Position numbers and translations under genes: made by a program
Notes under the pieces: model-generated
Databases searched by the model: none
The model's input: only the letters and a program-made list of their open reading frames with translations
What the model was told of the DNA's origin: nothing
Shown here: positions 3,996 through 44,926 of the stretch, piece after piece
Position numbering within the stretch: position 1 is the stretch's first letter
Layout: the number at the start of each line of letters is the position of its first letter
Origin: Thermoplasmata archaeon
GTDB lineage: Archaea > Thermoplasmatota > Thermoplasmata > Thermoplasmatales > GCA-001856825
NCBI GenBank assembly: GCA_049966795.1
Contig: JBMFTY010000002.1
Location: 10,874 to 74,873, forward strand
Reading direction: 5' to 3'
Length of the DNA stretch: 64,000 nucleotides

Positions 3996-5093
3996 GTGGA
4001 GATAGCGAAGTACCTTGTCGCCTCACCCACCTCTGAGCTACGGCTAACGATATTCAACTCGTTTTATTCCTGTCTTAACTGCAGCGCATGTCTTTCCGTG
4101 TGTCCAGTGGGCATAAATGCTGGCAGAGTGAGCAGCCTTGCGAGGAAACAGATAGTCAGTAATGGGATGAAAGGAGGGATTGCTGAGGCGATAGTGAGTG
4201 TCACATCCAGGTATGGAAGTCCCCTTGCCATCTCGCCAAACATGGATAGAATTTTGAAAGGGACGAAATCGCTGGAAGACTCGGACACATTGCTCTACAC
4301 AGGACAAATGTACTCACTCGCCGCATGCAGCAGTTCATTCTCCAAGATGGAGAAGATTCTCGGCGCAAAGCTCTCGGACCTAGCTGGAAGATTCATCGCC
4401 ATGTTTCCGGTAACAATGAAACTGATATCAGTGGCAATGAGAGGAAGGGACAGGAAGCTCTACGAGGATAGCGTTCGAGCTATCTCAGCCCTTCTCTCCA
4501 AGAGCGGAGTACCCTTCAAATTCATGGAAAAGGAACCGTACCCCGGAACGTTTCTCCTGGATTTGGGCTACGAGGATGAATTCAGAGAGTATGCATCAGG
4601 AATAGCTTCCGCGTTCAAATCCATGGGAATAAGGAGAATAATAACCGCAGACCCCCACACATACAACCTGCTGAAATATGATTATCCGAAGTACGTGGAT
4701 AACTTCGATTTCGAGATCCTCTTTTACACAGACCTTCTGAAAAGCCAGAATCTCGAGAGAACGGGGGAAACCGTGGTCTTCCATGAGCCCTGCCACATTG
4801 CAAGGGGGAATGAGCCTCTCTCCTCCCCCCTTGCCATCCTGAGAGGAGCATACCGGGTCCTTCTTCCTCAAAGGAGTGGCAGCATGACGGCCTGCTGTGG
4901 AGGACCTGATGAGCTAATGTTTCCGTCCATGGGAGAGAAAATATCCGAGGTTAGATACGAGGAACTCCGCTCGATGGGGGAATACAAGATAGTGACAGCC
5001 TGTCCGGTGTGCCTTTCAAACCTGAGGAAAGATAAAATGGTGACGGACCTTTCTCTTGTTCTGAATGTATCAGGGAGTTCTCGTGGACCTTAG
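3996..5093 (+). CDS. glcF: GlcF-like (Fe-S)-binding subunit with CCG domains; the coding sequence appears to extend upstream to about 3879
   Basis: The second cluster motif CLNCSACLSVCP and the CCG-domain cysteines (HEPCHIARG, TACCGGPD, ACPVCLSNL) lie inside the track ORF. The same frame stays open back to 3774 and encodes the first motif DCINCGFCEAVCPTF at 3912-3956, ahead of the GTG at 3996. See the finding on this junction. Confidence 0.8.
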   Translation: MEIAKYLVASPTSELRLTIFNSFYSCLNCSACLSVCPVGINAGRVSSLARKQIVSNGMKGGIAEAIVSVTSRYGSPLAISPNMDRILKGTKSLEDSDTLLYTGQMYSLAACSSSFSKMEKILGAKLSDLAGRFIAMFPVTMKLISVAMRGRDRKLYEDSVRAISALLSKSGVPFKFMEKEPYPGTFLLDLGYEDEFREYASGIASAFKSMGIRRIITADPHTYNLLKYDYPKYVDNFDFEILFYTDLLKSQNLERTGETVVFHEPCHIARGNEPLSSPLAILRGAYRVLLPQRSGSMTACCGGPDELMFPSMGEKISEVRYEELRSMGEYKIVTACPVCLSNLRKDKMVTDLSLVLNVSGSSRGP

Positions 5094-5165
5094 TACATCA
5101 CGTGACGGGGCCATTTACCTGGAACAGGGTGAAAGTGTTTAATATCGAATTCGCATAGCTACGGG

Positions 5166-5840
5166 ATGGGTCACATCCTTGAATTGTCAATAAAGCAGAC
5201 AGACTGTCCTCATCCGATTCTCACCTCAAAGATTAAGGGCCTGTCGATAATAGTTCTAAACACGATAAGGAACACCGACGGCACGCAAACCAACTTCAGC
5301 ATATTTCACTCTTCTTCCGTTGAAAAGACAAGGGATGCGATCAGGAAGCTGAAGAACTTTCCTAACGTGGAAGTGCAGGAGGTTATAGGCTCCAAGGGGC
5401 AGCTTTTCTCGGCCATATACAAATTCCCGTCAACTTCTGCCTTCCATAGGCTTTCCCTGAAGGGATTCAGGCTCTACCCGATAATTGCCAGGGATGGTAT
5501 AGAGAAGTGGTATTTCTATCTTGAAAAGGAAGATGAGAGGTCGTTCAGCTGGGTTAATGACAGCACGACAACACTCGTGGATGGAAGGAGGCTGTCCGTT
5601 TCGGAATTTTACGACTTCTACGTCCAGCTTTTCTTGGGTATATGGATGGACAGCCAGCACAACAATCTCTCGGAGCTTGACGGCCTGATACTTGAAAACG
5701 CCATAAAGGCGGGGTATTTCAACTGGCCGAGGAGTCTTACGTTATCGGACCTGAGCAAGAAGCTGTCTCTTCCGAAGACAACGCTGGCCTATCACCTGAG
5801 AAAGGTGGAGAAGGTCATGTTCGTGAGGTCCCTTCATTAA
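5166..5840 (+). CDS. HTH_10 (bacterio-opsin activator-like) transcriptional regulator
   Basis: The C-terminus LILENAIKAGYFNWPRSLTLSDLSKKLSLPKTTLAYHLRKVEKVMF is the Bat-type HTH_10 signature (GYF..PR...L.eLa..lgis..t...HLR..E.k). Confidence 0.6.
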   Translation: MGHILELSIKQTDCPHPILTSKIKGLSIIVLNTIRNTDGTQTNFSIFHSSSVEKTRDAIRKLKNFPNVEVQEVIGSKGQLFSAIYKFPSTSAFHRLSLKGFRLYPIIARDGIEKWYFYLEKEDERSFSWVNDSTTTLVDGRRLSVSEFYDFYVQLFLGIWMDSQHNNLSELDGLILENAIKAGYFNWPRSLTLSDLSKKLSLPKTTLAYHLRKVEKVMFVRSLH

Positions 5841-6097
5841 TGATATCCACGTGATCCAAAAATTTTCCATGTTCTAGAAATTACCTAGGGCTGCTTCTCC
5901 CGCAGATGAAAGGGAGCCCACTCAGGTCACGAGGGTGAAAGATTCAGGACGGTGGAATGTCAGGATGACAGAGTTGCAAAGAATAGTGAGCTTTCGCATC
6001 CATCCCCTCAGGCAGGTGTTGCGTGGGAACGAATTGAAGCCGAAATTCAACCACTGATGGGGGTAGAAAAATCGTAATTTCGCAACGCATTCCTTCT

Positions 6098-6126
6098 AAA
6101 AAAGAGAAAAGATTAAAAATAAAAAT
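6098..6126 (-). terminator. oligo-T tracts downstream of the OFOR operon
   Basis: On the minus strand, T5 (6121-6125), T5 (6115-6119) and T6 (6098-6103) follow directly after the TAA stop at 6133-6135. Archaeal intrinsic termination uses T tracts. Confidence 0.5.
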
Positions 6127-6132
6127 AGGGAT

Positions 6133-7128
6133 TTATTTCTCGACCTTCAGGCCAGCGGAGAACGGTACGACTCCTGGAATCTCCCACTCCTCCCACATCT
6201 CGTCTACCTTAGATTGGATATATTCGTAGTCCTCATCTATGAAGTGGGCGAACCTTCCCTGCTTCTCTAGGTACGACCTCACAGGCTCCCTCTTCTTTCC
6301 GCGAAGATCGTACGTGTACACAACCTTCCCCTTGATTATCTCGTAAACGGGGAACAGTCCTGTCTTCACTGCCAGCTCGCCAAGCTCATGGGAATACCTT
6401 GGATGATAGTCCCACCCCTTCGGGCAGGGATCAAGGGTGTGGATCATCGTTGGCCCTCCAATTGCCAGCGCCTTCTTCACTTTGTTCATGTAATCCATCG
6501 GCGGGAAAGTGGCTACCGCGGTCGCAACGTACTTTACGTTCGGATGGCCGACAGCGATCATTGGTGCAAGGTTCTTCTTCCACCTCTTGTGCATTATGCG
6601 GTGAACCTTACCGGTGGGCGAGAATGTGGTCTGCGCCCCGTACGTCGTCAGTCCTGAGGCCTGGATGTCTGTGTTCGCTGCGGATTCATTATCGTAAACG
6701 ATCACCAGAAGGTCATAGTCCGACTGCATCGCACCAGAAAGCCCCCCAAGACCGGCATCTCCAGCGCCAAGGTCGCCCGAGAAGTTTATCACGTTTATTT
6801 TCTCGTCCTTTATCTTTCCCTTCCTCCTGAGGGCTCTGAGCCCGGCAGCCATTCCAACTGCTGAAGCCCCTCCACCTGCAAGCTGCGTGTGCATCCACGG
6901 GATCAACCATGGGGTTGTCATGTAAGATGTGTTAGCCACGTACATGCATCCGGTTGCGCCAGTCACGACAGTCCTTGGCCCTGAAGCCTTTGCGAAGTCC
7001 CTCATCACCAGGGCAGATTCGCAACCCTGGCATGTTCTGTGGCCGGAGGTGTAGTACTCCGGAAGATCTATGCTGTGTACTCCCTTGTAAAGCTTCACAT
7101 CCTTGAATTCCTCAACTTCTTTCACCAT
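6133..7128 (-). CDS. 2-oxoacid:ferredoxin oxidoreductase, beta (TPP-binding) subunit
   Basis: Contains CQGCESALVMR and GDLGAGDAGLGGLSGAM (GDG-type TPP motif). 331 aa, sitting 14 nt downstream of the alpha subunit. Confidence 0.85.
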   Translation of the reverse strand: MVKEVEEFKDVKLYKGVHSIDLPEYYTSGHRTCQGCESALVMRDFAKASGPRTVVTGATGCMYVANTSYMTTPWLIPWMHTQLAGGGASAVGMAAGLRALRRKGKIKDEKINVINFSGDLGAGDAGLGGLSGAMQSDYDLLVIVYDNESAANTDIQASGLTTYGAQTTFSPTGKVHRIMHKRWKKNLAPMIAVGHPNVKYVATAVATFPPMDYMNKVKKALAIGGPTMIHTLDPCPKGWDYHPRYSHELGELAVKTGLFPVYEIIKGKVVYTYDLRGKKREPVRSYLEKQGRFAHFIDEDYEYIQSKVDEMWEEWEIPGVVPFSAGLKVEK

Positions 7129-26635: not shown

Positions 26636-27271
26636 ATGATTATGAAGGTGAGAAATATGGGAAATTATACAGCAAAATTACCCGCATACAAGAGCCTGAA
26701 AGGAATAAGCGAGAGAATGCTAGCGGAGCATCTCAAGCTATACAATGGATACGTGGCAAAGAGCAACGAGATCGTGGACAAACTGGCCTCCGGGACTGTT
26801 GACCTATCCAAGAGCGCAGCAACATATTCAGAATTCAGAGCGCTGAAGCTTGAGCAGACGTTCAACGGCAACGGGATGTACCTCCATCAGTACTATTTTG
26901 AGAACCTCTCGGACAATGGCGGCCAGCCGCAGGGCGAAGTGAAGAGTGAGATAGAAAAAAACTTCGGGAGCTTTGAAAAGTGGAAGGAGGAGTTTGTCGC
27001 AACTGGCATGGCTGGAAGGGGTTGGGCCGTTTTGGGTCTCAATCTCGAAGACGGGAAACTTTACAACCTTCTCTACGATGCACACAACATCGGAGGATTC
27101 GTCACTCTCGTGCCTCTCCTGGTCCTTGACGTTTTCGAACATGCCTACTTCATAGACTATGGAACGAGCAGGAAGGACTACATAAACGCCTACATGAGCC
27201 TTGTAAACTGGTCCGTTGTCCAGAAGAGGCTTGAGAAAGCAAAGAAGATGCACAGCATCTGGACATCCTGA
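26636..27271 (+). CDS. sod: Fe/Mn superoxide dismutase family protein (divergent N-terminal motif)
   Basis: C-terminal LVLDVFEHAYFIDYGTSRKDYINAYMSLVNWSVV (D and H ligands), FNGNGMYLHQYYFENL, and an N-terminal LAEHLKLYNGYV in place of the usual H..KHH..YV. Confidence 0.75.
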   Translation: MIMKVRNMGNYTAKLPAYKSLKGISERMLAEHLKLYNGYVAKSNEIVDKLASGTVDLSKSAATYSEFRALKLEQTFNGNGMYLHQYYFENLSDNGGQPQGEVKSEIEKNFGSFEKWKEEFVATGMAGRGWAVLGLNLEDGKLYNLLYDAHNIGGFVTLVPLLVLDVFEHAYFIDYGTSRKDYINAYMSLVNWSVVQKRLEKAKKMHSIWTS

Positions 27272-27473: not shown

Positions 27474-28772
27474 CTATCTGCTCCTAGAAATGTTAACATC
27501 AGCTACCTGGACGTACGGAGATTTTGTTGGTAGGGTTTCGTCCCACCACTTGACCTTCCCCGTTTCCCTTGTAATGCCCTCTATGTTTTTGAATAAGTTC
27601 AGAAGGGAATCCGAAATCCTTATGCCGCGCCATGTCTCCCTTATCTCTCCATTTTCAATGTAGAATATGCCGTCCCTCGGTATCGTTGAGAGGATTCCCT
27701 GCCTGTAGTCCTGGAAGCGCGTGTACCAGGTGTTCACGATGAATAGACCCTTCCTTGTGGACGAAATCATGTCGTCAAGTTTCTCGTTTCCAGGCTCAAC
27801 GCTTATCTGCCATGGGGAGGGTGCAATTATTCCGGCGTTTCCTGTGCTCTCCGTCTTGAATCTGGAAGCAGTGGAGAAGTTGTGGAGATAGCTCTTCACA
27901 ACCCCCTTTTCTATGACCGCCGTTTTGTGCGCAGGAGTGCCCTCATCATCGAGTGCCTTCGCGTTGAGCATGGTATCGTCGAGGGGGTCGTCGTACATCG
28001 TGAATAGGCTGCTTCCTATCCTCTCCCCAAGCCTGTCCGCGAACATGGACATTCCAGAATCCACCTGAAAGGCTGAAGCCATGGGTACGGTGTAGGAAAC
28101 GATGGATGCGAAGCACAGCGGTGCAAAAATAACGCTGAACTTCCCTTCCTCTCCTTCTCTGATGTTTTTGATCTTCCTAGAAAGGTCTATCAGGTCGTCT
28201 GCCTGCCTTTGGAGAATGGGGATGTCGTCATCACTTGAACTCATGAACGAGGACTGAACAGGATAATCCTGGTCGTTGAACCCCCTTGCCACGAATTCAA
28301 TGCCGAAGTGCCCCTGAGTTCCGGAGTTAAACGGGGTCACAATCTCTTCCCTGTAATCCTTGGAGTAGAAGACGCCTCCGACCCTCCTAAAGAATGGCTT
28401 CACATCTTGGATGAAGCCGTTTACGAACTCCTGCGGATTGAGGGATCTTAGCCTCTCGTCCCTGCTTCTAACTGTCCTGTAGGTGTTCCTTCTGTCATTA
28501 AGGCTTACGAAGTCCTTGTTGTCCTCTATGCCCTTAAGGGATGAGACGGCTCTTTCCAAAATCGCATCCAGGTCCTTTTCATCCCTCAGGTCAAAAGCAA
28601 ATGTCTTCTTACCCTTTGCAAGAAAGACCGTAATCAATTCCTCGTTCCAGGTGTTCGTGATGTCAATTGAGTTGTTTGAAAACCTGACCTGCGTTACATT
28701 TGAAACAAGCCTTTTAACGGCAGCCTGGTCAACGACTTTCGAAACCTTTTCATATACTCTGTTTACATCCAT
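27474..28772 (-). CDS. pmbA: PmbA/TldE-family metalloprotease subunit (peptidase U62)
   Basis: 432 aa, 6 nt downstream of tldD. C-terminal GLFIVNTWYTRFQDYRQGILSTIPRDGIFYIENGEI fits the TldD/PmbA fold pattern but lacks the HExxxH of TldD. Confidence 0.8.
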   Translation of the reverse strand: MDVNRVYEKVSKVVDQAAVKRLVSNVTQVRFSNNSIDITNTWNEELITVFLAKGKKTFAFDLRDEKDLDAILERAVSSLKGIEDNKDFVSLNDRRNTYRTVRSRDERLRSLNPQEFVNGFIQDVKPFFRRVGGVFYSKDYREEIVTPFNSGTQGHFGIEFVARGFNDQDYPVQSSFMSSSDDDIPILQRQADDLIDLSRKIKNIREGEEGKFSVIFAPLCFASIVSYTVPMASAFQVDSGMSMFADRLGERIGSSLFTMYDDPLDDTMLNAKALDDEGTPAHKTAVIEKGVVKSYLHNFSTASRFKTESTGNAGIIAPSPWQISVEPGNEKLDDMISSTRKGLFIVNTWYTRFQDYRQGILSTIPRDGIFYIENGEIRETWRGIRISDSLLNLFKNIEGITRETGKVKWWDETLPTKSPYVQVADVNISRSR

Positions 28773-28778
28773 CCTCCA

Positions 28779-30170
28779 TCACCTCACGTAAATCCCCCTG
28801 AGCCTTATGTGCGGCCCTCCCATCCACACGTCCACTCCCTGCATCGGATCGCCCTTTCCGCAGGTACCCGCTGAAAACTCGAGATCTTTTCCGACCGCAT
28901 CCACGGACGAATAGAACTTTACCGTTGTGGTCTCTATGACTGGCCTCCTGATCTGTTCCGCGACCTCCCCGTTCCTTATGAGGTAGGCTTCCCTCCCTAC
29001 GTATTTCTCGTTGAACCTTATGTCGTCTATGTTCCACTCAGTGAAACTCCTCATGTATACCCCCTCCTTTACGTCCTCCATCAATTCGTCCAGGCTGTAT
29101 TCTCCGGGCTCGATATATGTTGTGCTCATCCTGACGAGAGGCTCCTTGTCCCATTCAGACGATCTGGAAGCTCCATTGCTCTTCGCACCCATCCTCCCTG
29201 CGCTCTCCCTGTTTTGCAGGAACTCGTTAACAAGCCCTTTCCTGTAGAGGTACCTCTTCCTCGCAGGAACTCCGTCCCTGTCGTATTTGTAAAAACCAAA
29301 GCTGTGATCGATCGTTGGGTCATCCACTAGGTTGACAACGTCCGACCCAACTCTCAGTCCTTTGTCATCCTTCTTGATGAAGGATTCCCCTGCCTGCGCC
29401 ATCTCCCTTCCTAGTATCCTGTCAGCCTCCGATGGATGACCTGCACTCTCATGTGCCACAATACCTGATATTTCAGGCCCAGCAATCAGGTCGTATGTGC
29501 CCGGTGTGATTTTACGGGCTGCAGCAGCCTTCTTAAGCGCCGCAGCCTCCCTCTTTACCCTCCCTGGCAAATCCCAGAAATCTATGGCCTCATACCCGCC
29601 CGAGTATCCGAGTTCAACTGTTCCCTGCTCGAAACTCCCTCCCTCTATGAAGCCAATCATCGCGAAGAATGAAACCTTGGGCAGCCTGTATCTTATAGAC
29701 ATACCGTCGGAATTCTCGTTCAGGCCCTCTTCTATGTTATCATTCAGCACCAGTATGCGCATCTGTATCCCCTCCTCCGTGAGAAGGGAATCAACGTCCT
29801 TCAGAACTGAAACCTTCTCCTCAAGAGCCACATCCTCAATCTTCCTCGCCTCATCCACTTTCCAGGAATCTTGGTACGCCTTCTCGTCAGAGAGCGAATT
29901 CCTTCCGGGGAGCCTGGACCTTTTCACTGCGGCATCTATCTCCTCCTTCAGCACGTTCCAGTCCTGGATATTCGATGATGAAAAGGATATTGAGCTGTTC
30001 ACGATCCTGAAGGCAAGACCGGCATCCCTTGAATATCCTGTGGCAGATATGCTTCCGTTCTTCATCACGACCGTGTTCCTCCTAGATGAGGAGTAGTTAG
30101 CCTCCACATATCTGCCCATCTTGGATGCGTATCCTATGGCCTTTTCTACGAATTCCTCCATCACGATCAC
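28779..30170 (-). CDS. tldD: TldD-family metalloprotease (peptidase U62)
   Basis: 463 aa. Metal site GIVAHESAGHPSEADR (HExxxH) and C-terminal GTCGKGDPMQGVDVWMGGPHIRL, typical of TldD. Confidence 0.85.
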   Translation of the reverse strand: MIVMEEFVEKAIGYASKMGRYVEANYSSSRRNTVVMKNGSISATGYSRDAGLAFRIVNSSISFSSSNIQDWNVLKEEIDAAVKRSRLPGRNSLSDEKAYQDSWKVDEARKIEDVALEEKVSVLKDVDSLLTEEGIQMRILVLNDNIEEGLNENSDGMSIRYRLPKVSFFAMIGFIEGGSFEQGTVELGYSGGYEAIDFWDLPGRVKREAAALKKAAAARKITPGTYDLIAGPEISGIVAHESAGHPSEADRILGREMAQAGESFIKKDDKGLRVGSDVVNLVDDPTIDHSFGFYKYDRDGVPARKRYLYRKGLVNEFLQNRESAGRMGAKSNGASRSSEWDKEPLVRMSTTYIEPGEYSLDELMEDVKEGVYMRSFTEWNIDDIRFNEKYVGREAYLIRNGEVAEQIRRPVIETTTVKFYSSVDAVGKDLEFSAGTCGKGDPMQGVDVWMGGPHIRLRGIYVR

Positions 30171-31267
30171 CTCAGGTCCTTTATTTTCCTGACCATCTTC
30201 TCAAACTGGTCCATAAGCTCCTTTATCGCCCCGTACAGGTTCCAGTCCCAGGATCTGGAGAAGAACGTCTTGGACTCCGTGACCATCTTCCCGCGGACCG
30301 AATACTTGATCTCCTTCCCCTGCTGGTTGTATTCCTCGATGTGAATGTTTATCACCAGGGGCTTCATCCTCTTGAACTTTGCAATGGACCTCGCGGATTT
30401 CTCGATAATCGAATATATCCCCTCGTAAACCTGCGGGTCCTCAAATCTTGCGCCGGAGAGGTTCACGAGTACGGATTCCTCCTTTGAACCCTTGGCTATT
30501 TCGCTCAGGATGTCGCTCTGGCTAACTACACCTTGGGGCCTTCCTCTTTCATCCGCTATGACACAGACGCTATGTCCCCCCTCCACCATCCTCCCTATGC
30601 ATTCTGAAACAGTAGAATCCAGAGTAACGTATAACGGAGGACCCATTGCACTCTTCACCTCTACATTCGCCTCATTCCTGTAGTAATTCCCCTGTCTCAT
30701 CCTCCCCTTTTCCCTCCAGAGGCCTTTGCTCACATCATTTATGTTGACCATTCCGACAAGCTTCCCAGAAACGTCGACCACAGGAACGCTCGTCTCATCT
30801 ATTTCCCTCATCTTTCTGAGGGCTTCAGAAAGAACGTCGTTCTCCGTGACTGTGATAGGATCGCCGGACATTATTTCGGAGGCCTTCTGCGATGATATCT
30901 CCTCAAGCTCTGCGGCCGCCTTAACTATATCGGTTGCGGTCACGATACCTTCAAGCTTTTCTCCTTTCATCACCGGTAGTGCCCTCAGGCCACTGTCGAG
31001 CATCTGTCTTGCCGCCTCGGAGATGGATGCATCGGGTGAAATCGAAGGTGTTCTGGCCATGACAGTCTTCACTTTCGTGGTCACGGGAAGCGATTCCCTC
31101 TTGTAGAGCATGTTGTACTCAATCATTCCGGCGTACTTTCCCTTTGAATCTAGGACAAGAAGGTGATGGAAATTCCTGTCGCTCATCTTGGATATCGCGG
31201 TGGAAATTGTATCATCCACGCTCACAGTAACGAAATCCGTGGTCATGACGTCTCTAACGGAGACCAT
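30167..31267 (-). CDS. 4x CBS-domain protein with a C-terminal HPF/RaiA-like (S30AE-like) domain
   Basis: Four CBS repeats start at [37 protein letters not shown] and [12 protein letters not shown]. Residues 266-366 align by eye to bacterial RaiA/HPF over their full length (NLSG..., [22 protein letters not shown]). Confidence 0.7.
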   Translation of the reverse strand: [366 protein letters not shown]

Positions 31268-31288: not shown

Positions 31289-32698
31289 TTAAGTACTTTT
31301 TTTCCTCCCCGTTATTATATCCGGAATCAGGTCCAATATCTCGGAGGTGAAATAGCTGTACCCCTTTTCCCTGAACGCTTCAAGGCCTGCGGAACCAACA
31401 ATGTAAGAGGCAAGGAACGAGGCGTGGAGAGGATCCACCCCCCTTGCGAGCAGGCCGGCGACAGCACCGGTGAGTATATCCCCCGTTCCCCCCCTCGTCA
31501 TGCTCTGGTGGTGGAACCTCTCGTTTCTCTTTACGGTTTCACCGTCGGTCACGATGTCCACCGACCCCTTCAGAAGTATCACAGCGTTGATCCTCTTTGC
31601 CACCATGAGAACGTTCTCCTCCGTGGGTTCCAGATCAAAGGCTGACCTGAACTCCCCCCTATGTGGAGTAAGGACAGCATTTCCCTTGAAGTCGCCTATG
31701 GATAGTGAGGACATGAGAGCATCCGCATCCACCACTACCTTTCTTCCTTTCGACAGGGAGAATCGAATGATCTTCTCCGCCTCCCTCACTGACTTTTCGT
31801 CCTTGGTTATTCCGGGCCCTACCGCAACTGCTGCCTCCCTCTCCTCAACAGCCTTCATGATGCCGTAATTGAACTCTATCCTGTCAATTCCGGATTGCCT
31901 GAGGATCACGTCAGGGGCATTGCACGCTATGAATTGGTGAATGTCCTTAGGTGCAAATAGGAACACGAGGTCTACGCCCATCCTCTGGGCTGATTTTGCC
32001 ACGTAAACCGGCGCTCCAAAGAACTCAGAACTCCCCCCTATTATCACGGACACCCCGTTCTGCCCCTTGTGGGAATCCCTTTGAGACTGCGGGAAGGCTA
32101 GGATATCCCCAGGCCCAATCATCTCCACGATCTCCCTAGGGAATCCCACGTCGACCACCCTGATCTCGCCGCAGCTCTCCTCGGTCATCCCCTCCTTGAT
32201 GAACTGCATCGTCACGGTGAAATCCGCTCTAACGGAAATTTTTGATGGGAAGCCGGAGGGAACGTCAACAGCCACGACCCTCTTGCCCGAATCGTTTATC
32301 CTCCTGATCGCTGAAAGGTATGGCTCCCTAGGCTCTCCAGAGATGCCAACGCCAAGCATCGCATCTATCACAACGTCCACATCCCCGAAATCCAGCTCCT
32401 TTGCCAGAACTCCCCCGCTGTCAAGGTACTCTTTCTGTTTCTTCCTGCACAGGTCCGTGGATGCAGGGGATACCTGGAAGGCTTTCACGTCCACGCCCTT
32501 AGACTTTAGGATCCTTGACGCAACATATCCGTCTCCTCCGTTGTTCCCGCCGCCGCAGACCGCCAAGACCCTCCCAGGTTTCAGAGAGAGAACTGTTTCC
32601 GCAACCCCCTTTCCCGCATTCTCCATCAGGAGTTCCATATTGACGCCAGATACCTCAGCGTTGATATCCAATATTCTCGAATCGAGGATGCTAAACAT
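31289..32698 (-). CDS. nnr: bifunctional NAD(P)H-hydrate repair enzyme Nnr (epimerase plus ADP-dependent dehydratase)
   Basis: YjeF_N motif VLAVCGGGNNGGDGYVASR and C-terminal kinase-like motif TRGGTGDILTGAVAGLLA. Confidence 0.85.
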   Translation of the reverse strand: MFSILDSRILDINAEVSGVNMELLMENAGKGVAETVLSLKPGRVLAVCGGGNNGGDGYVASRILKSKGVDVKAFQVSPASTDLCRKKQKEYLDSGGVLAKELDFGDVDVVIDAMLGVGISGEPREPYLSAIRRINDSGKRVVAVDVPSGFPSKISVRADFTVTMQFIKEGMTEESCGEIRVVDVGFPREIVEMIGPGDILAFPQSQRDSHKGQNGVSVIIGGSSEFFGAPVYVAKSAQRMGVDLVFLFAPKDIHQFIACNAPDVILRQSGIDRIEFNYGIMKAVEEREAAVAVGPGITKDEKSVREAEKIIRFSLSKGRKVVVDADALMSSLSIGDFKGNAVLTPHRGEFRSAFDLEPTEENVLMVAKRINAVILLKGSVDIVTDGETVKRNERFHHQSMTRGGTGDILTGAVAGLLARGVDPLHASFLASYIVGSAGLEAFREKGYSYFTSEILDLIPDIITGRKKST

Positions 32699-32837: not shown

Positions 32838-33446
32838 GTGCTGATGGTGATAAGGGTGAAAAGTATAGAGGAACTGGCTGAAACTGCGAGGGAACTGAAG
32901 CAGAAGGGAATGACCGACAAGGACATAGCGACGGAGATGCATCTTTCTCTAAACACGGTGATATGGCTCCTGAGCGGGGAATCAAAGGTTGAGAAGGCCC
33001 CGGGTGACGTCAAGATAGGATGGAGGAGCGTAGGTGTTTACGCGAGCAGGATATATAATATCGCTGAAATCATGGCGGACATAATCGAGGAGGAATCACA
33101 GAGGCTTGAGAAGGAAGTGCAGACCGTTGTTGGCATAACTATCAACGGCATCCCGTATGCCACGTTCATATCGGACATACTTGGCACCGAACTTGGTATC
33201 TACAGGGCGATAACGCTCAAGGGAGAGGGTACTTTCTCAAGCAACTATGCTAAGATAGCAGGCAAGAACCTGGTGTTCGTTGACGATGTCATCAGCACAG
33301 GCGAGACAGCTTCCAAGGCGATAAATGCAGCGAGAAAGGAGAAGGGAAACCCCATTCTTGTTGTTGTTCTCACTAACAAGACAACGAAGGACGAGATTGA
33401 GGGGGTCCCCCTCAGGGCTTTGATAAGAGCAAGGCTGGTAAAGTAA
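32838..33446 (+). CDS. orotate phosphoribosyltransferase-like regulator (GfcR/PyrE2-like: N-terminal HTH plus PRTase domain)
   Basis: HTH-like N-terminus KGMTDKDIATEMHLSLNTVIWLL and the PRTase PRPP loop LVFVDDVISTGETASKAI. ATG 32844 is an alternative start. Confidence 0.65.
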   Translation: MLMVIRVKSIEELAETARELKQKGMTDKDIATEMHLSLNTVIWLLSGESKVEKAPGDVKIGWRSVGVYASRIYNIAEIMADIIEEESQRLEKEVQTVVGITINGIPYATFISDILGTELGIYRAITLKGEGTFSSNYAKIAGKNLVFVDDVISTGETASKAINAARKEKGNPILVVVLTNKTTKDEIEGVPLRALIRARLVK

Positions 33447-34987
33447 TGCATTGGGCGGATGTTGTAGCTTCCAAGGTTGAGGGGAAGCAGGTAGTCTCTA
33501 CGGGTATTTCGCCGTCTGGGGAGATACACGTGGGAAACATGAGGGAGGTCCTCACGGGAGAGATTGTGTGCAGGGCCCTTAGGGATGCCGGGAAAGACGT
33601 GGTGTTCTATTATGAGGCGGATGACATGGACCCCCTCAGGAAAGTCCCAAAGGGAATAGACCAATCGTTTTCAAGATACATAGGCCAGCCCCTCTTCAGG
33701 GTTCCTGCCCCCGATGGAAAACATCCAAGCTGGTCGGAGCAGTTCATAGAGCCATTCAGGGAGACGCTGGACATAGTTGGGGTAAAGCTCAACTTCCTCT
33801 ATACTCACGAACTCTATCAGCAAGGTGCTTTCAACGACCTGTTAAGGATATCGTTCGAAAAGAGGGAGCAGATCGCGAGAATACTGTCGGAGGTTTCCGG
33901 GAAGCAGGTCCAGGGAAATTACTATCCTTTTAACATGATATGCGACTCCTGCGGAAGGCTTGACACCACTGAGATCACCTCCTTCTCTTGGCCTATTGCG
34001 GAGTACAAGTGTTCAAGCTGCAACTATTCCGGAAGCAAAGACGTGAGGAATGGAAACGGAAAGCTGCCCTGGAGGGTGGAGTGGCCTGCAAAATGGGCCT
34101 ATCTGCATGTGACCATTGAACCCTTCGGGAAGGATCATGCCGCCGCCGGTGGCTCATACGACACCGGCAAGAGGATCGCAACTGAAATTTTCGGAATCAA
34201 CCCTCCCTATCCGGTGGTCTACGAATGGATACTCCTCAGGAACCAGGGGGCGATGCACTCATCCAAGGGGGTACTCATAAGGTCGATAGACATGGTGAGG
34301 ATGGCCCCGCCGGAGATACTGAGATTTCTCATAGCTAAGAACAATCCAGAGAGGCACATTGAGATGGATGCCGGCAGAGGCCTCATATCCCTGGTCAACG
34401 AATATGACATTTACGAAAGGGTTTACTTCGGCAAGGAGGAGGTTGAGGACAAAGAAAGAAAGAGGGACATGAACAGGGTTTACGAACTCTCCCAGCCAGG
34501 AGAAATACCGAAAGAGATGCCGTTGCAGGTATCGTTTAACCACCTAATAAATCTAGTGCAGTTGAAAGGGACTAACGAGGAAATCATAGAATCCCTGAAG
34601 AAGTCATCCTTTATGATCCCCAGGGATACTAGAAGGCTAGTCGCTAGAATTGAAGCAGTTAGATACTGGCTGGACCATTTTGCTGGTGAGGAGTTCAAGA
34701 TAAAGCTGAATGAGAGGCCACCAGACCTGATATTAAACAATGGGGAAATTGCATTCCTCCGAAACCTTGTGGACAGACTGACAGATGGTCTATCGCCTGA
34801 GGACGTGAACAAGGTTATACACGAGAGCTGTTCCTCGTCCGTGCGGGATAAACAGGGGTGCTTCTCTCTCCTGTACAAGATATTCCTCAACAGGGAAACT
34901 GGCCCAAGGCTTGGCTATCTGTTCACCTCCATGGGAATGGAGAAAGTGAAAGGCTTCCTAGAGAGCTACCTGAATAGGGATCATTGA
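33446..34987 (+). CDS. lysK: lysine--tRNA ligase, class I
   Basis: MHWADVVASKV...TGISPSGEIHVGNMREV (HIGH-like HVGN) and GAMHSSKG (KMSKS-like). 513 aa. The start overlaps the upstream stop (TAATG). Confidence 0.9.
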   Translation: MHWADVVASKVEGKQVVSTGISPSGEIHVGNMREVLTGEIVCRALRDAGKDVVFYYEADDMDPLRKVPKGIDQSFSRYIGQPLFRVPAPDGKHPSWSEQFIEPFRETLDIVGVKLNFLYTHELYQQGAFNDLLRISFEKREQIARILSEVSGKQVQGNYYPFNMICDSCGRLDTTEITSFSWPIAEYKCSSCNYSGSKDVRNGNGKLPWRVEWPAKWAYLHVTIEPFGKDHAAAGGSYDTGKRIATEIFGINPPYPVVYEWILLRNQGAMHSSKGVLIRSIDMVRMAPPEILRFLIAKNNPERHIEMDAGRGLISLVNEYDIYERVYFGKEEVEDKERKRDMNRVYELSQPGEIPKEMPLQVSFNHLINLVQLKGTNEEIIESLKKSSFMIPRDTRRLVARIEAVRYWLDHFAGEEFKIKLNERPPDLILNNGEIAFLRNLVDRLTDGLSPEDVNKVIHESCSSSVRDKQGCFSLLYKIFLNRETGPRLGYLFTSMGMEKVKGFLESYLNRDH

Positions 34988-35543: not shown

Positions 35544-35616
35544 GGGGCTGTGGGGTAGCTTGGTATCCTACGGGCTTTGGGAGCCTGAGACCCCGGTCCA
35601 AATCCGGGCAGCCCCA
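35544..35616 (+). tRNA. tRNA-Pro (anticodon UGG)
   Basis: Folded by hand. The acceptor stem GGGGCTG/CAGCCCC has 7 perfect bp. The anticodon stem is CGGGC/GCCTG with loop TTTGGGA (anticodon TGG). The T stem is CCCGG/CCGGG. U8, A14, GG and A21 are present, the discriminator is A, there is no encoded CCA and no intron. The T loop reads TCCAAAT, with C at position 55. Confidence 0.85.
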
Positions 35617-42604: not shown

Positions 42605-42991
42605 ATGACATGGCAAGATCAAGAGGTAAGGGAACTCAAGGAGAACAAGTACATACTGATAGACGAGGAGCCCTGCAGAATTGTTGAGATCACGACGTCC
42701 AAGCCGGGGAAGCATGGCGAGGCCAAGGCAAGGATAGTCGCGATAGGCATATTCGACAACCAGAAGAGGAGCGTTGTCTATCCAACCAAGCACAAGGTGA
42801 AGGTGCCTATCATAGAGAAGAAGACAGCGCAGATTTTGAGCGTTACACAGAACGAGGCCCTCCTGATGGATATGGAGACATTCGAGCAGTTCAGCGCTCC
42901 TATTCCGGAAGAGTTCAAGGAGAAAGCGAAAAGCGGGGCAGAAGTGGAATACTGGGAATCCATGGGAAAGAGGAAAATAATGAGGATTTGA
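42605..42991 (+). CDS. eif5a: translation initiation/elongation factor aIF5A
   Basis: [21 protein letters not shown] contains the hypusine-site motif (S/T)KxGKHG. 128 aa. Confidence 0.9.
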
Positions 42992-43831
42992 ATGCCTTCT
43001 AGGTTAAAGTTCTGCGATACCACTGAAGATTACTCGGACTCAAGGTATGTGCTTTTCGGGGTGCCCTATGATGCAACGGTATCCTTCAGGTCCGGGGAGA
43101 AACTTGCACCTAATGAGATAAGAAAAGCATCGTACAACATGGAGAGCTATTCCCTTTACAGGGGGGTGGACCTGAAATTTGCTGGGGTTTTTGACGATGG
43201 GGACCTAGATGAGCATCACGACTCCGAGGAAATGCTGGAGGACGTGTTCTCTGAGGTTGACAAGATAGTATCTGACGGGAAATTTCCAATAATGCTTGGC
43301 GGGGAGCACACCATTACTCTCGGCGCAATAAGAAGGATGAAGTGCAGGACTGTTTTCATAGACGCCCATACCGATTTCAGGGATTCGTACCTAGGGAACA
43401 GATACTCGCATGCCTGCGTGGCCAGGAGGGTGAGCGAGGTTGTTGGAAAAGAGAATGTGGTCTCCGTAGGAATAAGGTCCGTTTCCCCAGAGGAAATGGA
43501 ACAGGGAACGCAGAAATTCTTCACAAGCTACGACGTAAGGAAAAACAGCGGGGAGATGATCCGATATCTAAAGAAGTTCAGCGATTCTCCTGTTTATTTG
43601 TCCATAGACTTTGACGGTTTCGATCCCGCCTACGCGCCGGGCGTGGGAACCCCGGAACCGTTCGGTCTTGATCCCTTCATTATGTTGGAAATCATCGAGG
43701 TTATTGGCCACAGGTTGGTTGGGTTGGATTTGACGGAGATCACCCCGGTTTATGACAACGGCAACACCTCGATGCTGGCCGCAAGGATTATCCAGGAGAT
43801 TGTCTCTTATCTTGAGAAGGACAGGAAATGA
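42992..43831 (+). CDS. speB: agmatinase (ureohydrolase family)
   Basis: GGEHTITLG, FIDAHTDFRD and SIDFDGFDPAYAPGVGTPEPFGL are the arginase/agmatinase Mn-binding motifs. The ATG follows the aIF5A TGA directly. Confidence 0.85.
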   Translation: MPSRLKFCDTTEDYSDSRYVLFGVPYDATVSFRSGEKLAPNEIRKASYNMESYSLYRGVDLKFAGVFDDGDLDEHHDSEEMLEDVFSEVDKIVSDGKFPIMLGGEHTITLGAIRRMKCRTVFIDAHTDFRDSYLGNRYSHACVARRVSEVVGKENVVSVGIRSVSPEEMEQGTQKFFTSYDVRKNSGEMIRYLKKFSDSPVYLSIDFDGFDPAYAPGVGTPEPFGLDPFIMLEIIEVIGHRLVGLDLTEITPVYDNGNTSMLAARIIQEIVSYLEKDRK

Positions 43832-44427
43832 ACAATGAAAAATCATACAGGGAGGGCTACAGGGACGGCCTGAGGTATGCGATAATGCTCGCCAGGTCCA
43901 TGGGGATAAGGGAGGAATATATCAGGAAACTCGAAAGCGAGTATGCTGGAGGAGAAGTTGGAAATGCCTTGAAGTTGGAGTACGGGGAAACGTACATCAT
44001 ATACGAGAGAAGCAACGTCAAGGGCCTTGAAATTGTATCGGAGGTGGCCACGCAGGGACACCCTGTCCTGATCATCAGCAGGGATTCAAAGAGCAACATG
44101 GATGGGCTGAAGAATGTGAAAATCGCGCTCGTCACCTATGAGGAAAAGAAAGGGGGTTTCAATCCAAACCAGCTCAGCCAGCTGCAAGAATTCGTAATCA
44201 ACAATCTTGAGGACAGGTCCGTCCTGTACATCGACTGCATAGATTACTTATTCTCCACGTCCCCTTCCCCGCAGAACGTGATCAGATTTCTCACCGTTCT
44301 GAAGGACAGGGTTATCGGGAGATCAGGAATACTGATACTCTCCATAAACAAAGATGCCATCGGGAAGACGGAACTTTCAATGGTAGAGAAGGAATTCAGG
44401 AACACCCTCAAGGTTAAGACGAAGTGA
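43828..44427 (+). CDS. DUF835-family protein (RecA/KaiC-like fold without a Walker A motif)
   Basis: GETYIIYERSNVKGLEIVSEVATQGHPVLIISRDS ... VLYIDCIDYLFSTSPSPQNVIRFLTVLKDRV ... ILILSINKDAI follows the DUF835 pattern. 4-nt ATGA overlap with agmatinase. Confidence 0.6.
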   Translation: MNNEKSYREGYRDGLRYAIMLARSMGIREEYIRKLESEYAGGEVGNALKLEYGETYIIYERSNVKGLEIVSEVATQGHPVLIISRDSKSNMDGLKNVKIALVTYEEKKGGFNPNQLSQLQEFVINNLEDRSVLYIDCIDYLFSTSPSPQNVIRFLTVLKDRVIGRSGILILSINKDAIGKTELSMVEKEFRNTLKVKTK

Positions 44428-44926
44428 GTTCCACCATGTCAATTCTTGAAGGCGTGGGTATCTTGTGAGACGCTTTGCGAAGCGCCAGTTTAGCTTTCTC
44501 AACACCTTCCCTGTTCACCCTCACAATTATGACGCTTGCTCCTCTTTTAACCCTTGCAGCAGTGCCGACAGGCCTTCCAAATGCCATGCTCATGCCGCTG
44601 GATATTCTGTCAGCCCCTGCGCCAGTAGCCATCTTGTGCTCTCTGATCACGTGATGCGGATAGGGCCTCACTCTCATGAAATAACCCTTCTCCCCGAAAT
44701 CCTTAAGAAGCTGCCTGTTGGAGGATACCCTAGCAGCCTCAAGGGCAGTGTGCCTTATCTGGCAACTTTCCTCAGCAACCAGCCTGAGTTCAACCTGGAA
44801 ATTTCCGTTTACATTACCAGCTACAAACTGCTGTATCCTCGGCGAGGGAACTCCGCCCATGTACTCCCTTTTCGTATAGGCAGGACCCGTGATCCTCGTG
44901 TACATCCTTGCTGGTTTCCTTACCAT
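44414..44926 (-). CDS. rpl10e: 50S ribosomal protein L10e (uL16)
   Basis: MVRKPARMYTRITGPAYTKREYMGGVPSPRI and RVRPYPHHVIREHKMATGAGADR are the classic L10e sequence. Confidence 0.9.
   Translation of the reverse strand: MVRKPARMYTRITGPAYTKREYMGGVPSPRIQQFVAGNVNGNFQVELRLVAEESCQIRHTALEAARVSSNRQLLKDFGEKGYFMRVRPYPHHVIREHKMATGAGADRISSGMSMAFGRPVGTAARVKRGASVIIVRVNREGVEKAKLALRKASHKIPTPSRIDMVELTSS

Follow-up and report, generated by a model that had tools for sequence, protein, structure and literature searches.

The window analyzed here is a 64,000-nucleotide stretch of contig JBMFTY010000002.1 from a Thermoplasmata archaeon, and the gene under study, on its reverse strand (positions 30,167 to 31,267), very probably encodes a ribosome hibernation factor of the HibA/AHA type. 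The gene, hereafter hibA, begins with an ATG and specifies 366 residues plus a stop codon; it lies downstream of nnr and upstream of tldD and pmbA, all on the same strand. Its product is an exact match to MGC8644817.1, an NCBI entry from a Thermoplasmata archaeon metagenome-assembled genome (MAG; 75-kb contig) that is labeled only 'CBS domain-containing protein'. The protein shows full-length homology to HibA of Pyrococcus abyssi (Pa-HibA), and a scan of all open reading frames (ORFs) of the window returned no second CBS-tetrad protein.

Domain architecture of the window protein

The original prediction, made by reading the sequence, placed four CBS modules in residues 1 to 258 of the 366-aa ORF, and the tetrad proves real. 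It comprises two Bateman modules (30,494 to 31,267, reverse strand) and is recognized by Pfam as four CBS domains with E = 3.5e-52. Ribose motifs of the form GhhxxxD are present in CBS2 (G107), CBS3 (G172) and CBS4 (G246). Those of CBS3 and CBS4 are common to the window protein and Pa-HibA, GMVNIND (172) and GVVSQSD (246) aligning with GLVTLHD and GILTVKD, respectively. In the family alignments, D252 of CBS4 is invariant and D178 of CBS3 nearly so. The module is acidic (isoelectric point, pI, 5.2), in contrast to the basic C-terminal domain (pI 9.6), whose charge is as expected for rRNA binding.

CBS3 and CBS4 are joined by a strongly basic loop of 18 residues (∼185 to 202; 30,662 to 30,715, reverse strand; pI 10.3), which aligns with residues 190 to 207 of Pa-HibA and is conserved in a 35-sequence family alignment. 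Its predicted local distance difference test (pLDDT) values of 53 to 65 are low, which fits a flexible loop. By alignment, it would be the counterpart of the ‘PTC loop’ of Pa-HibA (PTC, peptidyl-transferase center) and of ‘loop 3’ of AHA.

The C-terminal module (residues 265 to 366, 102 aa; 30,170 to 30,475, reverse strand) had been said to track RaiA/HPF, and the sequence signal, weak as it is, is genuine. The PF02482 (Ribosomal_S30AE) profile matches the domain with E = 1.1e-4 (profile positions 12 to 85 of 88, 23.3 bits), and TIGR00741 (NCBIfam, HPF/yfiA) does so with E = 1.7e-4. To extend this to the family, 49 homologues were gathered, 35 were aligned and the C-terminal domains were then excised for a domain profile. 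Of 18 C-terminal domains taken from the family, 14 match PF02482 (E ≤ 0.01; best 1.9e-8), and relatives at 36–40% identity already carry precomputed PF02482 and CBS annotations. Searched against PDB sequences, the domain profile retrieves Pa-HibA (9sr9_H) and 9l96_a, then nearly all bacterial HPF/RaiA/YfiA/protein Y; 18 of the 22 matches are HibA-type or HPF/RaiA-type chains. The bacterial HPF chains are individually marginal (E 0.02–0.7), yet all are collinear. In its automatic annotation, JGI names the homologues P0055, P0060, P0061, P0078, P0084 and P0090 ‘CBS domain-containing protein/ribosome-associated translation inhibitor RaiA’ or ‘ribosomal subunit interface protein’, whereas the NCBI labels for them go no further than ‘CBS domain-containing’ or ‘HPP family’.

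Structurally, the AlphaFold2 model of the full-length protein (pLDDT 84.8) shows, by DSSP, a β-α-β-β-β-α topology after the CBS tetrad (β1 267 to 272, α1 278 to 296, β2 303 to 316, β3 319 to 330, β4 334 to 341, α2 344 to 365). A Foldseek search with this model returned CBS-tetrad structures only and no HibA entry, and the C-terminal domain was therefore modeled separately. Alone, it is predicted with a pLDDT of 93.6 and an E-H-E-E-E-H order of elements, which is the RaiA fold that the original prediction had anticipated. In Foldseek against the PDB, the top 38 matches of the domain model are all HPF/RaiA/YfiA/pY/PSRP1/MPY structures, with template modeling (TM) scores of 0.62 to 0.79 and E-values down to 1.2e-7; later matches fall below a TM score of 0.5. 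The HPF/RaiA resemblance is well beyond chance.

Homology to ribosome-bound HibA and the HibA/AHA family

The homology extends over both modules. A sequence search aligns residues 2 to 359 of the window protein with residues 4 to 368 of Pa-HibA (9sr9_H) collinearly (E = 1.3e-26), the family profile matches the same chain with E = 5.8e-66, and BLASTP gives E = 3e-29. A second solved CBS-HPF chain, 9l96_a (406 aa), is a full-length profile match (E = 5.2e-48); no publication behind PDB 9l96 was found in the literature search. HibA has been described from P. abyssi (Q9UYR4, PDB 9sr9-9srf/9t7h) and Thermococcus barophilus (F0LKU5) by Madru et al. (Nat Commun 2026; preprint October 2025; PMC13324472), and AHA of Haloferax volcanii by Souza et al. 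(bioRxiv 2026; PMC12934967), an independent report of the CBS4-HPF architecture. The HibA/AHA family was thus already published in 2025–2026, and the window protein is an uncharacterized orthologue and an ordinary member of it. The idea that the CBS-HPF fusion is an archaeal hibernation factor, put forward in the original prediction as a candidate, is supported by this full-length homology and is no longer novel.

Published work on the family describes such proteins on the ribosome. On the 70S ribosome, the HPF domain of P. abyssi HibA and H. volcanii AHA lies within the 30S subunit's mRNA/tRNA channel and their CBS module on the 50S subunit (PMC13324472, PMC12934967). The CBS module of Pa-HibA takes three positions on the 50S subunit, at the PTC, uL5 and the L1 stalk, and at the PTC its loop 190–207 wraps the universally conserved A2834 of 23S rRNA (PMC13324472). 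In isolation, this module binds AMP, ADP and ATP with dissociation constants of 12 µM, 65 µM and 113 µM at the CBS3/CBS4 interface (PMC13324472), and AHA carries two AMP molecules at the CBS3/CBS4 junction (PMC12934967). HibA inhibits in vitro translation, and T. barophilus from which hibA has been deleted shows a lag phase twice as long and ∼60% less 70S in stationary phase (PMC13324472); family knockouts are slow to recover from stationary phase (PMC13324472, PMC12934967). The HibA family occurs in ∼47% of archaeal genomes, in a set that took in several hundred Thermoplasmatota (PMC13324472), and 3,160 AHA homologues were counted across 17 phyla (PMC12934967).

Gene neighborhood and conservation of the hibA-tldD-pmbA cluster

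Downstream of hibA, tldD (28,779 to 30,170, reverse strand) encodes the catalytic metalloprotease subunit, with the first, second and third Pfam PmbA_TldD domains and an HExxxH motif (HESAGH at residue 240). It is followed after 6 nt by pmbA/tldE (27,474 to 28,772, reverse strand; 432 aa, Pfam), the partner subunit, which lacks HExxxH. Upstream, nnr (31,289 to 32,698, reverse strand) encodes a bifunctional NAD(P)H-hydrate repair enzyme with Pfam YjeF_N and Carb_kinase domains and ends 21 nt before hibA. The two short gaps, nnr to hibA and tldD to pmbA, had been given correctly at the outset. The 4-nt overlap between hibA and tldD is less secure: it requires a doubtful GTG start at 30,170. A 5-nt spacer is likelier because the alignments of all tldD homologues begin no earlier than the ATG at 30,161 (residue 4) and because a Shine-Dalgarno (SD)-like GAGGTGA at 30,173 to 30,167, overlapping the hibA stop codon, precedes that ATG. 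The ATG at 30,161 is therefore the likely true start as judged from these sequence features, and the three genes are packed like an operon with either start. An SD-like GGAGG also precedes pmbA, at the tldD-pmbA junction (28,770 to 28,790, reverse strand), and the 21-nt AT-rich nnr-hibA spacer holds no SD-like motif before hibA.

A survey of the linkage to tldD and pmbA, as had been suggested, reveals that the triad recurs across Thermoplasmatota with gaps of −4 to 21 nt, down to 31% HibA identity, and with differing outer flanks. It is found at HibA identities to the window protein of 61–82% (L001–L004), 55% (L010 and L011), 44% (L008), 40% (L005–L007), 37% (L017) and 31% (L014), and the organisms that carry it, where named, are Thermoplasmata or Thermoplasmatota. 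The 5.2-kb unit of maintenance functions proposed originally holds up in its three-gene core, hibA-tldD-pmbA, but the role of nnr in it was overstated: nnr lies upstream of hibA only at HibA identities of at least 44% (L001–L004, L008, L010) and not in L005–L007, L014 and L017. In the protein collection, the profile search extended as far as Nanohaloarchaea and returned nothing from Thermococcales or Haloferax. The search of metagenome loci with a 10-sequence alignment gave generic CBS proteins at ∼77 of 80 loci, with L017–L019 useful. The triad is absent from L012 and L018 (33–35% identity) and from the Nanohaloarchaea loci examined (L013, L015, L016).

The linkage is possibly the sole new point of this analysis, and its functional meaning is speculative. 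Neither the HibA nor the AHA paper mentions tldD or any operon (PMC13324472, PMC12934967), and a literature search linking TldD to ribosome hibernation returned just two incidental co-mentions. That hibA is locked, in one Thermoplasmatota branch, in an operon with the TldD/TldE (PmbA) genes would suggest a functional coupling of hibernation and this protease, a proposal that we regard as unlikely and offer tentatively. Under it, TldD/TldE might, for example, take HibA away or dispose of peptides derived from ribosomes as cells leave dormancy, or HibA and the protease might be induced together as a single starvation module.

The loci lacking the triad have neighbors of their own. In L012 and L018, an HDAC-family gene lies convergent directly after hibA (4,487 to 5,410 and 5,629 to 6,639, both reverse strand), and in L012 a divergent LonB protease gene lies upstream. 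In all three Nanohaloarchaea loci, the hibA homologue is preceded on its own strand, at a distance of 2–12 nt, by a gene for a 166-aa NYN-domain protein, a predicted RNase (L013, 1,014 to 1,514; L015, 4,488 to 4,988; L016, 4,498 to 4,998). The metagenome locus L019 (3,619 to 5,574) encodes a CBS-tetrad protein of 359 aa, with 28% identity and without a PF02482 match, whose gene is directly preceded by one for a DRG-like GTPase with MMR_HSR1 and TGS domains, of the ‘50S ribosome-binding GTPase’ family.

Other genes flank the cluster in the window. A gene for an Fe/Mn superoxide dismutase (SOD) sits just past pmbA on the opposite strand (26,636 to 27,271, forward strand), as it does in L001, L004 and L008. 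The same slot in L010 (10,128 to 10,652) holds a non-homologous Ni-SOD and its maturation peptidase, and in Nanohaloarchaea (L015, L016) an Fe-SOD lies 4–5 kb from hibA. On the other side, a phosphoribosyltransferase gene whose product has an N-terminal helix-turn-helix-like region (32,838 to 33,446) overlaps by 1 nt the gene for a class I archaeal-type lysyl-tRNA synthetase (33,446 to 34,987), a pair kept beside nnr in L001, L004 and L008. Rfam and tRNA scans of the window gave only tRNA-Pro(TGG) at 35,544 to 35,616. Farther away, the gene for aIF5A (42,605 to 42,991) is abutted with zero gap by an arginase/agmatinase-family gene (42,992 to 43,831). The gene for uL16/L10e (44,414 to 44,926, reverse strand) is 13 kb off, a proximity to hibA that is probably coincidental; in Pa-HibA complexes, a loop of uL16 overhangs the PTC loop of HibA (PMC13324472).

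Alternative interpretations

Several observations weigh against assigning the window gene to HibA/AHA, or against carrying the published properties of the family over to it. Identity to Pa-HibA is just 23% (BLASTP), and the loop that joins CBS3 to CBS4 falls short of its Pa-HibA counterpart by 3 residues. The window protein stops right after helix α2, so that ∼17–20 C-terminal residues of Pa-HibA (392 aa) are missing; in Pa-HibA, the C-terminal tail extends as far as the mRNA exit channel's entrance (PMC13324472), and relatives of the window protein at ∼40% identity retain a tail of ∼10 residues. The experimentally studied members are those of P. abyssi, T. barophilus and H. volcanii, and the Thermoplasmatota members are known from sequence. 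AMP and ATP left the ribosome-bound states of Pa-HibA largely unchanged, bar one extra, weakly populated state with ATP (PMC13324472), and direct control of ribosome binding by energy charge, the coupling put forward in the original prediction, is unproven even for Pa-HibA. Finally, the PF02482 comparison is favorable in its E-value and in its matches across the family, but the single sequence falls 0.4 bit under the Pfam gathering cut-off of 23.7 bits with the domain alone and reaches 19.9 bits with the full protein. This sub-threshold score would suit a generic CBS protein whose HPF/RaiA likeness is convergent or due to chance, and which acts as a small-molecule sensor or as a transcription regulator like the CBS-tetrad protein HhpR; the bare NCBI label, and the name ‘predicted transcriptional regulator’ given to some relatives by JGI, lean the same way. 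Such an interpretation is scarcely credible in view of the PF02482 matches among the family domains, the exclusively HPF/RaiA-type top structural matches of the domain and the full-length homology to a HibA solved on the ribosome. HhpR-type CM-3 proteins, moreover, have no HPF domain.

The gene neighborhood raises a different alternative, in which the window protein, as a regulator built on a CBS tetrad, has the co-encoded TldD/TldE (PmbA) and not the ribosome as its main partner. Its HPF-like fold would then have been turned into an adaptor, and the protease would be gated by the binding of adenylates. Regulation of an enzyme fused to them or partnering them is a common role of CBS modules, and the tight hibA-tldD-pmbA cluster is maintained to the lowest HibA identity at which it was found while its flanks vary. 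However, operon neighbors need not touch physically, and hibA homologues of other lineages occur without tldD linkage; the protease is therefore not an obligate partner of the family. Ribosome-bound HibA aligns collinearly with the entire protein, HPF domain and CBS3-CBS4 loop included, and the HPF domain is still basic, as for rRNA binding. A protease adaptor is very unlikely on this evidence, and a ribosome hibernation factor of the HibA/AHA type is the assignment followed below.

Proposed mechanism and significance

By homology to the members solved on the ribosome, we infer that the window protein binds both ribosomal subunits. Its HPF domain would occlude the decoding channel of the 30S subunit, and its CBS tetrad would dock on the 50S subunit and occlude the tRNA sites there. 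By analogy with Pa-HibA, the basic CBS3-CBS4 loop could reach into the PTC. Together, the two modules would clamp an inactive 70S ribosome and protect it during starvation or stress; because one protein would grip both subunits, the idle 70S would be kept assembled, silent and protected, and regrowth after stress would be faster. Adenine nucleotides probably bind to the CBS tetrad, with the predicted site at the CBS3/CBS4 interface, and the protein may be regulated by the energy state of the cell.

The broader interest of the CBS4-HPF fusion is that it ties an HPF hibernation module common to Bacteria and Archaea to an adenylate-binding module resembling AMPK gamma, a discovery already published by two independent groups. 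To this, the window makes smaller additions: it allows a MAG protein to be annotated better, and it supplies a short-tailed Thermoplasmata variant of the family. The conserved hibA-tldD-tldE cluster could be a lead to the removal or co-regulation of HibA and to the role of TldD/TldE in archaea.

Comparison with known systems

AMPK gamma shares the CBS-tetrad fold (Foldseek E ∼1e-18, TMt ∼0.69), and its adenylate sites correspond to the ones filled in AHA. It is a kinase regulatory subunit without a ribosome-binding domain, and the likeness is limited to the CBS module. Other CBS-tetrad proteins bind and silence archaeal ribosomes: Dri of Pyrobaculum calidifontis (9e6q/9e7f), SriA-D of Methanosarcina acetivorans (9znf/9zng/9zni) and ARC-A/P of Methanolobus. 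Dri corresponds to the CBS-containing ribosome-inactivating factors of crenarchaea mentioned in the original prediction. In Foldseek, the model of the CBS module is nearest to SriA (9znf_4, E = 8e-23, TMt 0.85), followed by Dri (9e7f_3), AMPK gamma and MJ1225, and the resemblance to SriA and Dri is confined to this N-terminal module. Dri, Sri and ARC have one or two CBS tetrads and no HPF/RaiA domain; their own CBS modules block the 30S subunit, or they act as heteromers. Links to nucleotides and to energy state are a feature of these factors, and ATP is reported to release ARC. The phyletic distributions of the Dri/Sri/ARC and HibA/AHA groups are largely mutually exclusive (PMC13324472, PMC12934967).

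The bacterial and plastid HPF/RaiA proteins (YfiA, protein Y, pY-PSRP1) have the same fold as the window domain, with weak collinear sequence similarity (12–20% identity). Bacterial HPF stands alone or carries a C-terminal dimerization domain (long HPF), whereas the window domain follows a CBS tetrad of 258 aa and has nothing past α2. Its β1-α1 loop and β2-β3 hairpin are extended relative to bacterial HPF/RaiA. Within the 30S decoding channel, the solved archaeal relatives occupy a binding site that matches the one used by bacterial HPF, and these relatives show no 100S dimer mechanism.

Within the HibA/AHA family, Pa-HibA provides a match over nearly the whole length. AHA (HVO_2384), compared by its published description, has the same two modules and the same proposed steric-occlusion mechanism. 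The parts stand in the same order in Pa-HibA and the window protein: the four CBS domains, with a long loop between CBS3 and CBS4, are followed by a short linker and then by the β-α-β-β-β-α HPF/RaiA domain. The two archaeal-specific insertions of the Pa-HibA HPF domain, defined by a deletion mutant (PMC13324472), 283-SAL-285 and 324-KFRGVHL-330, both have counterparts in the window protein, GARFEDPQ and NQQGKEIK, the second being 1 residue shorter than in Pa-HibA and accompanied by the long strands β2 and β3.

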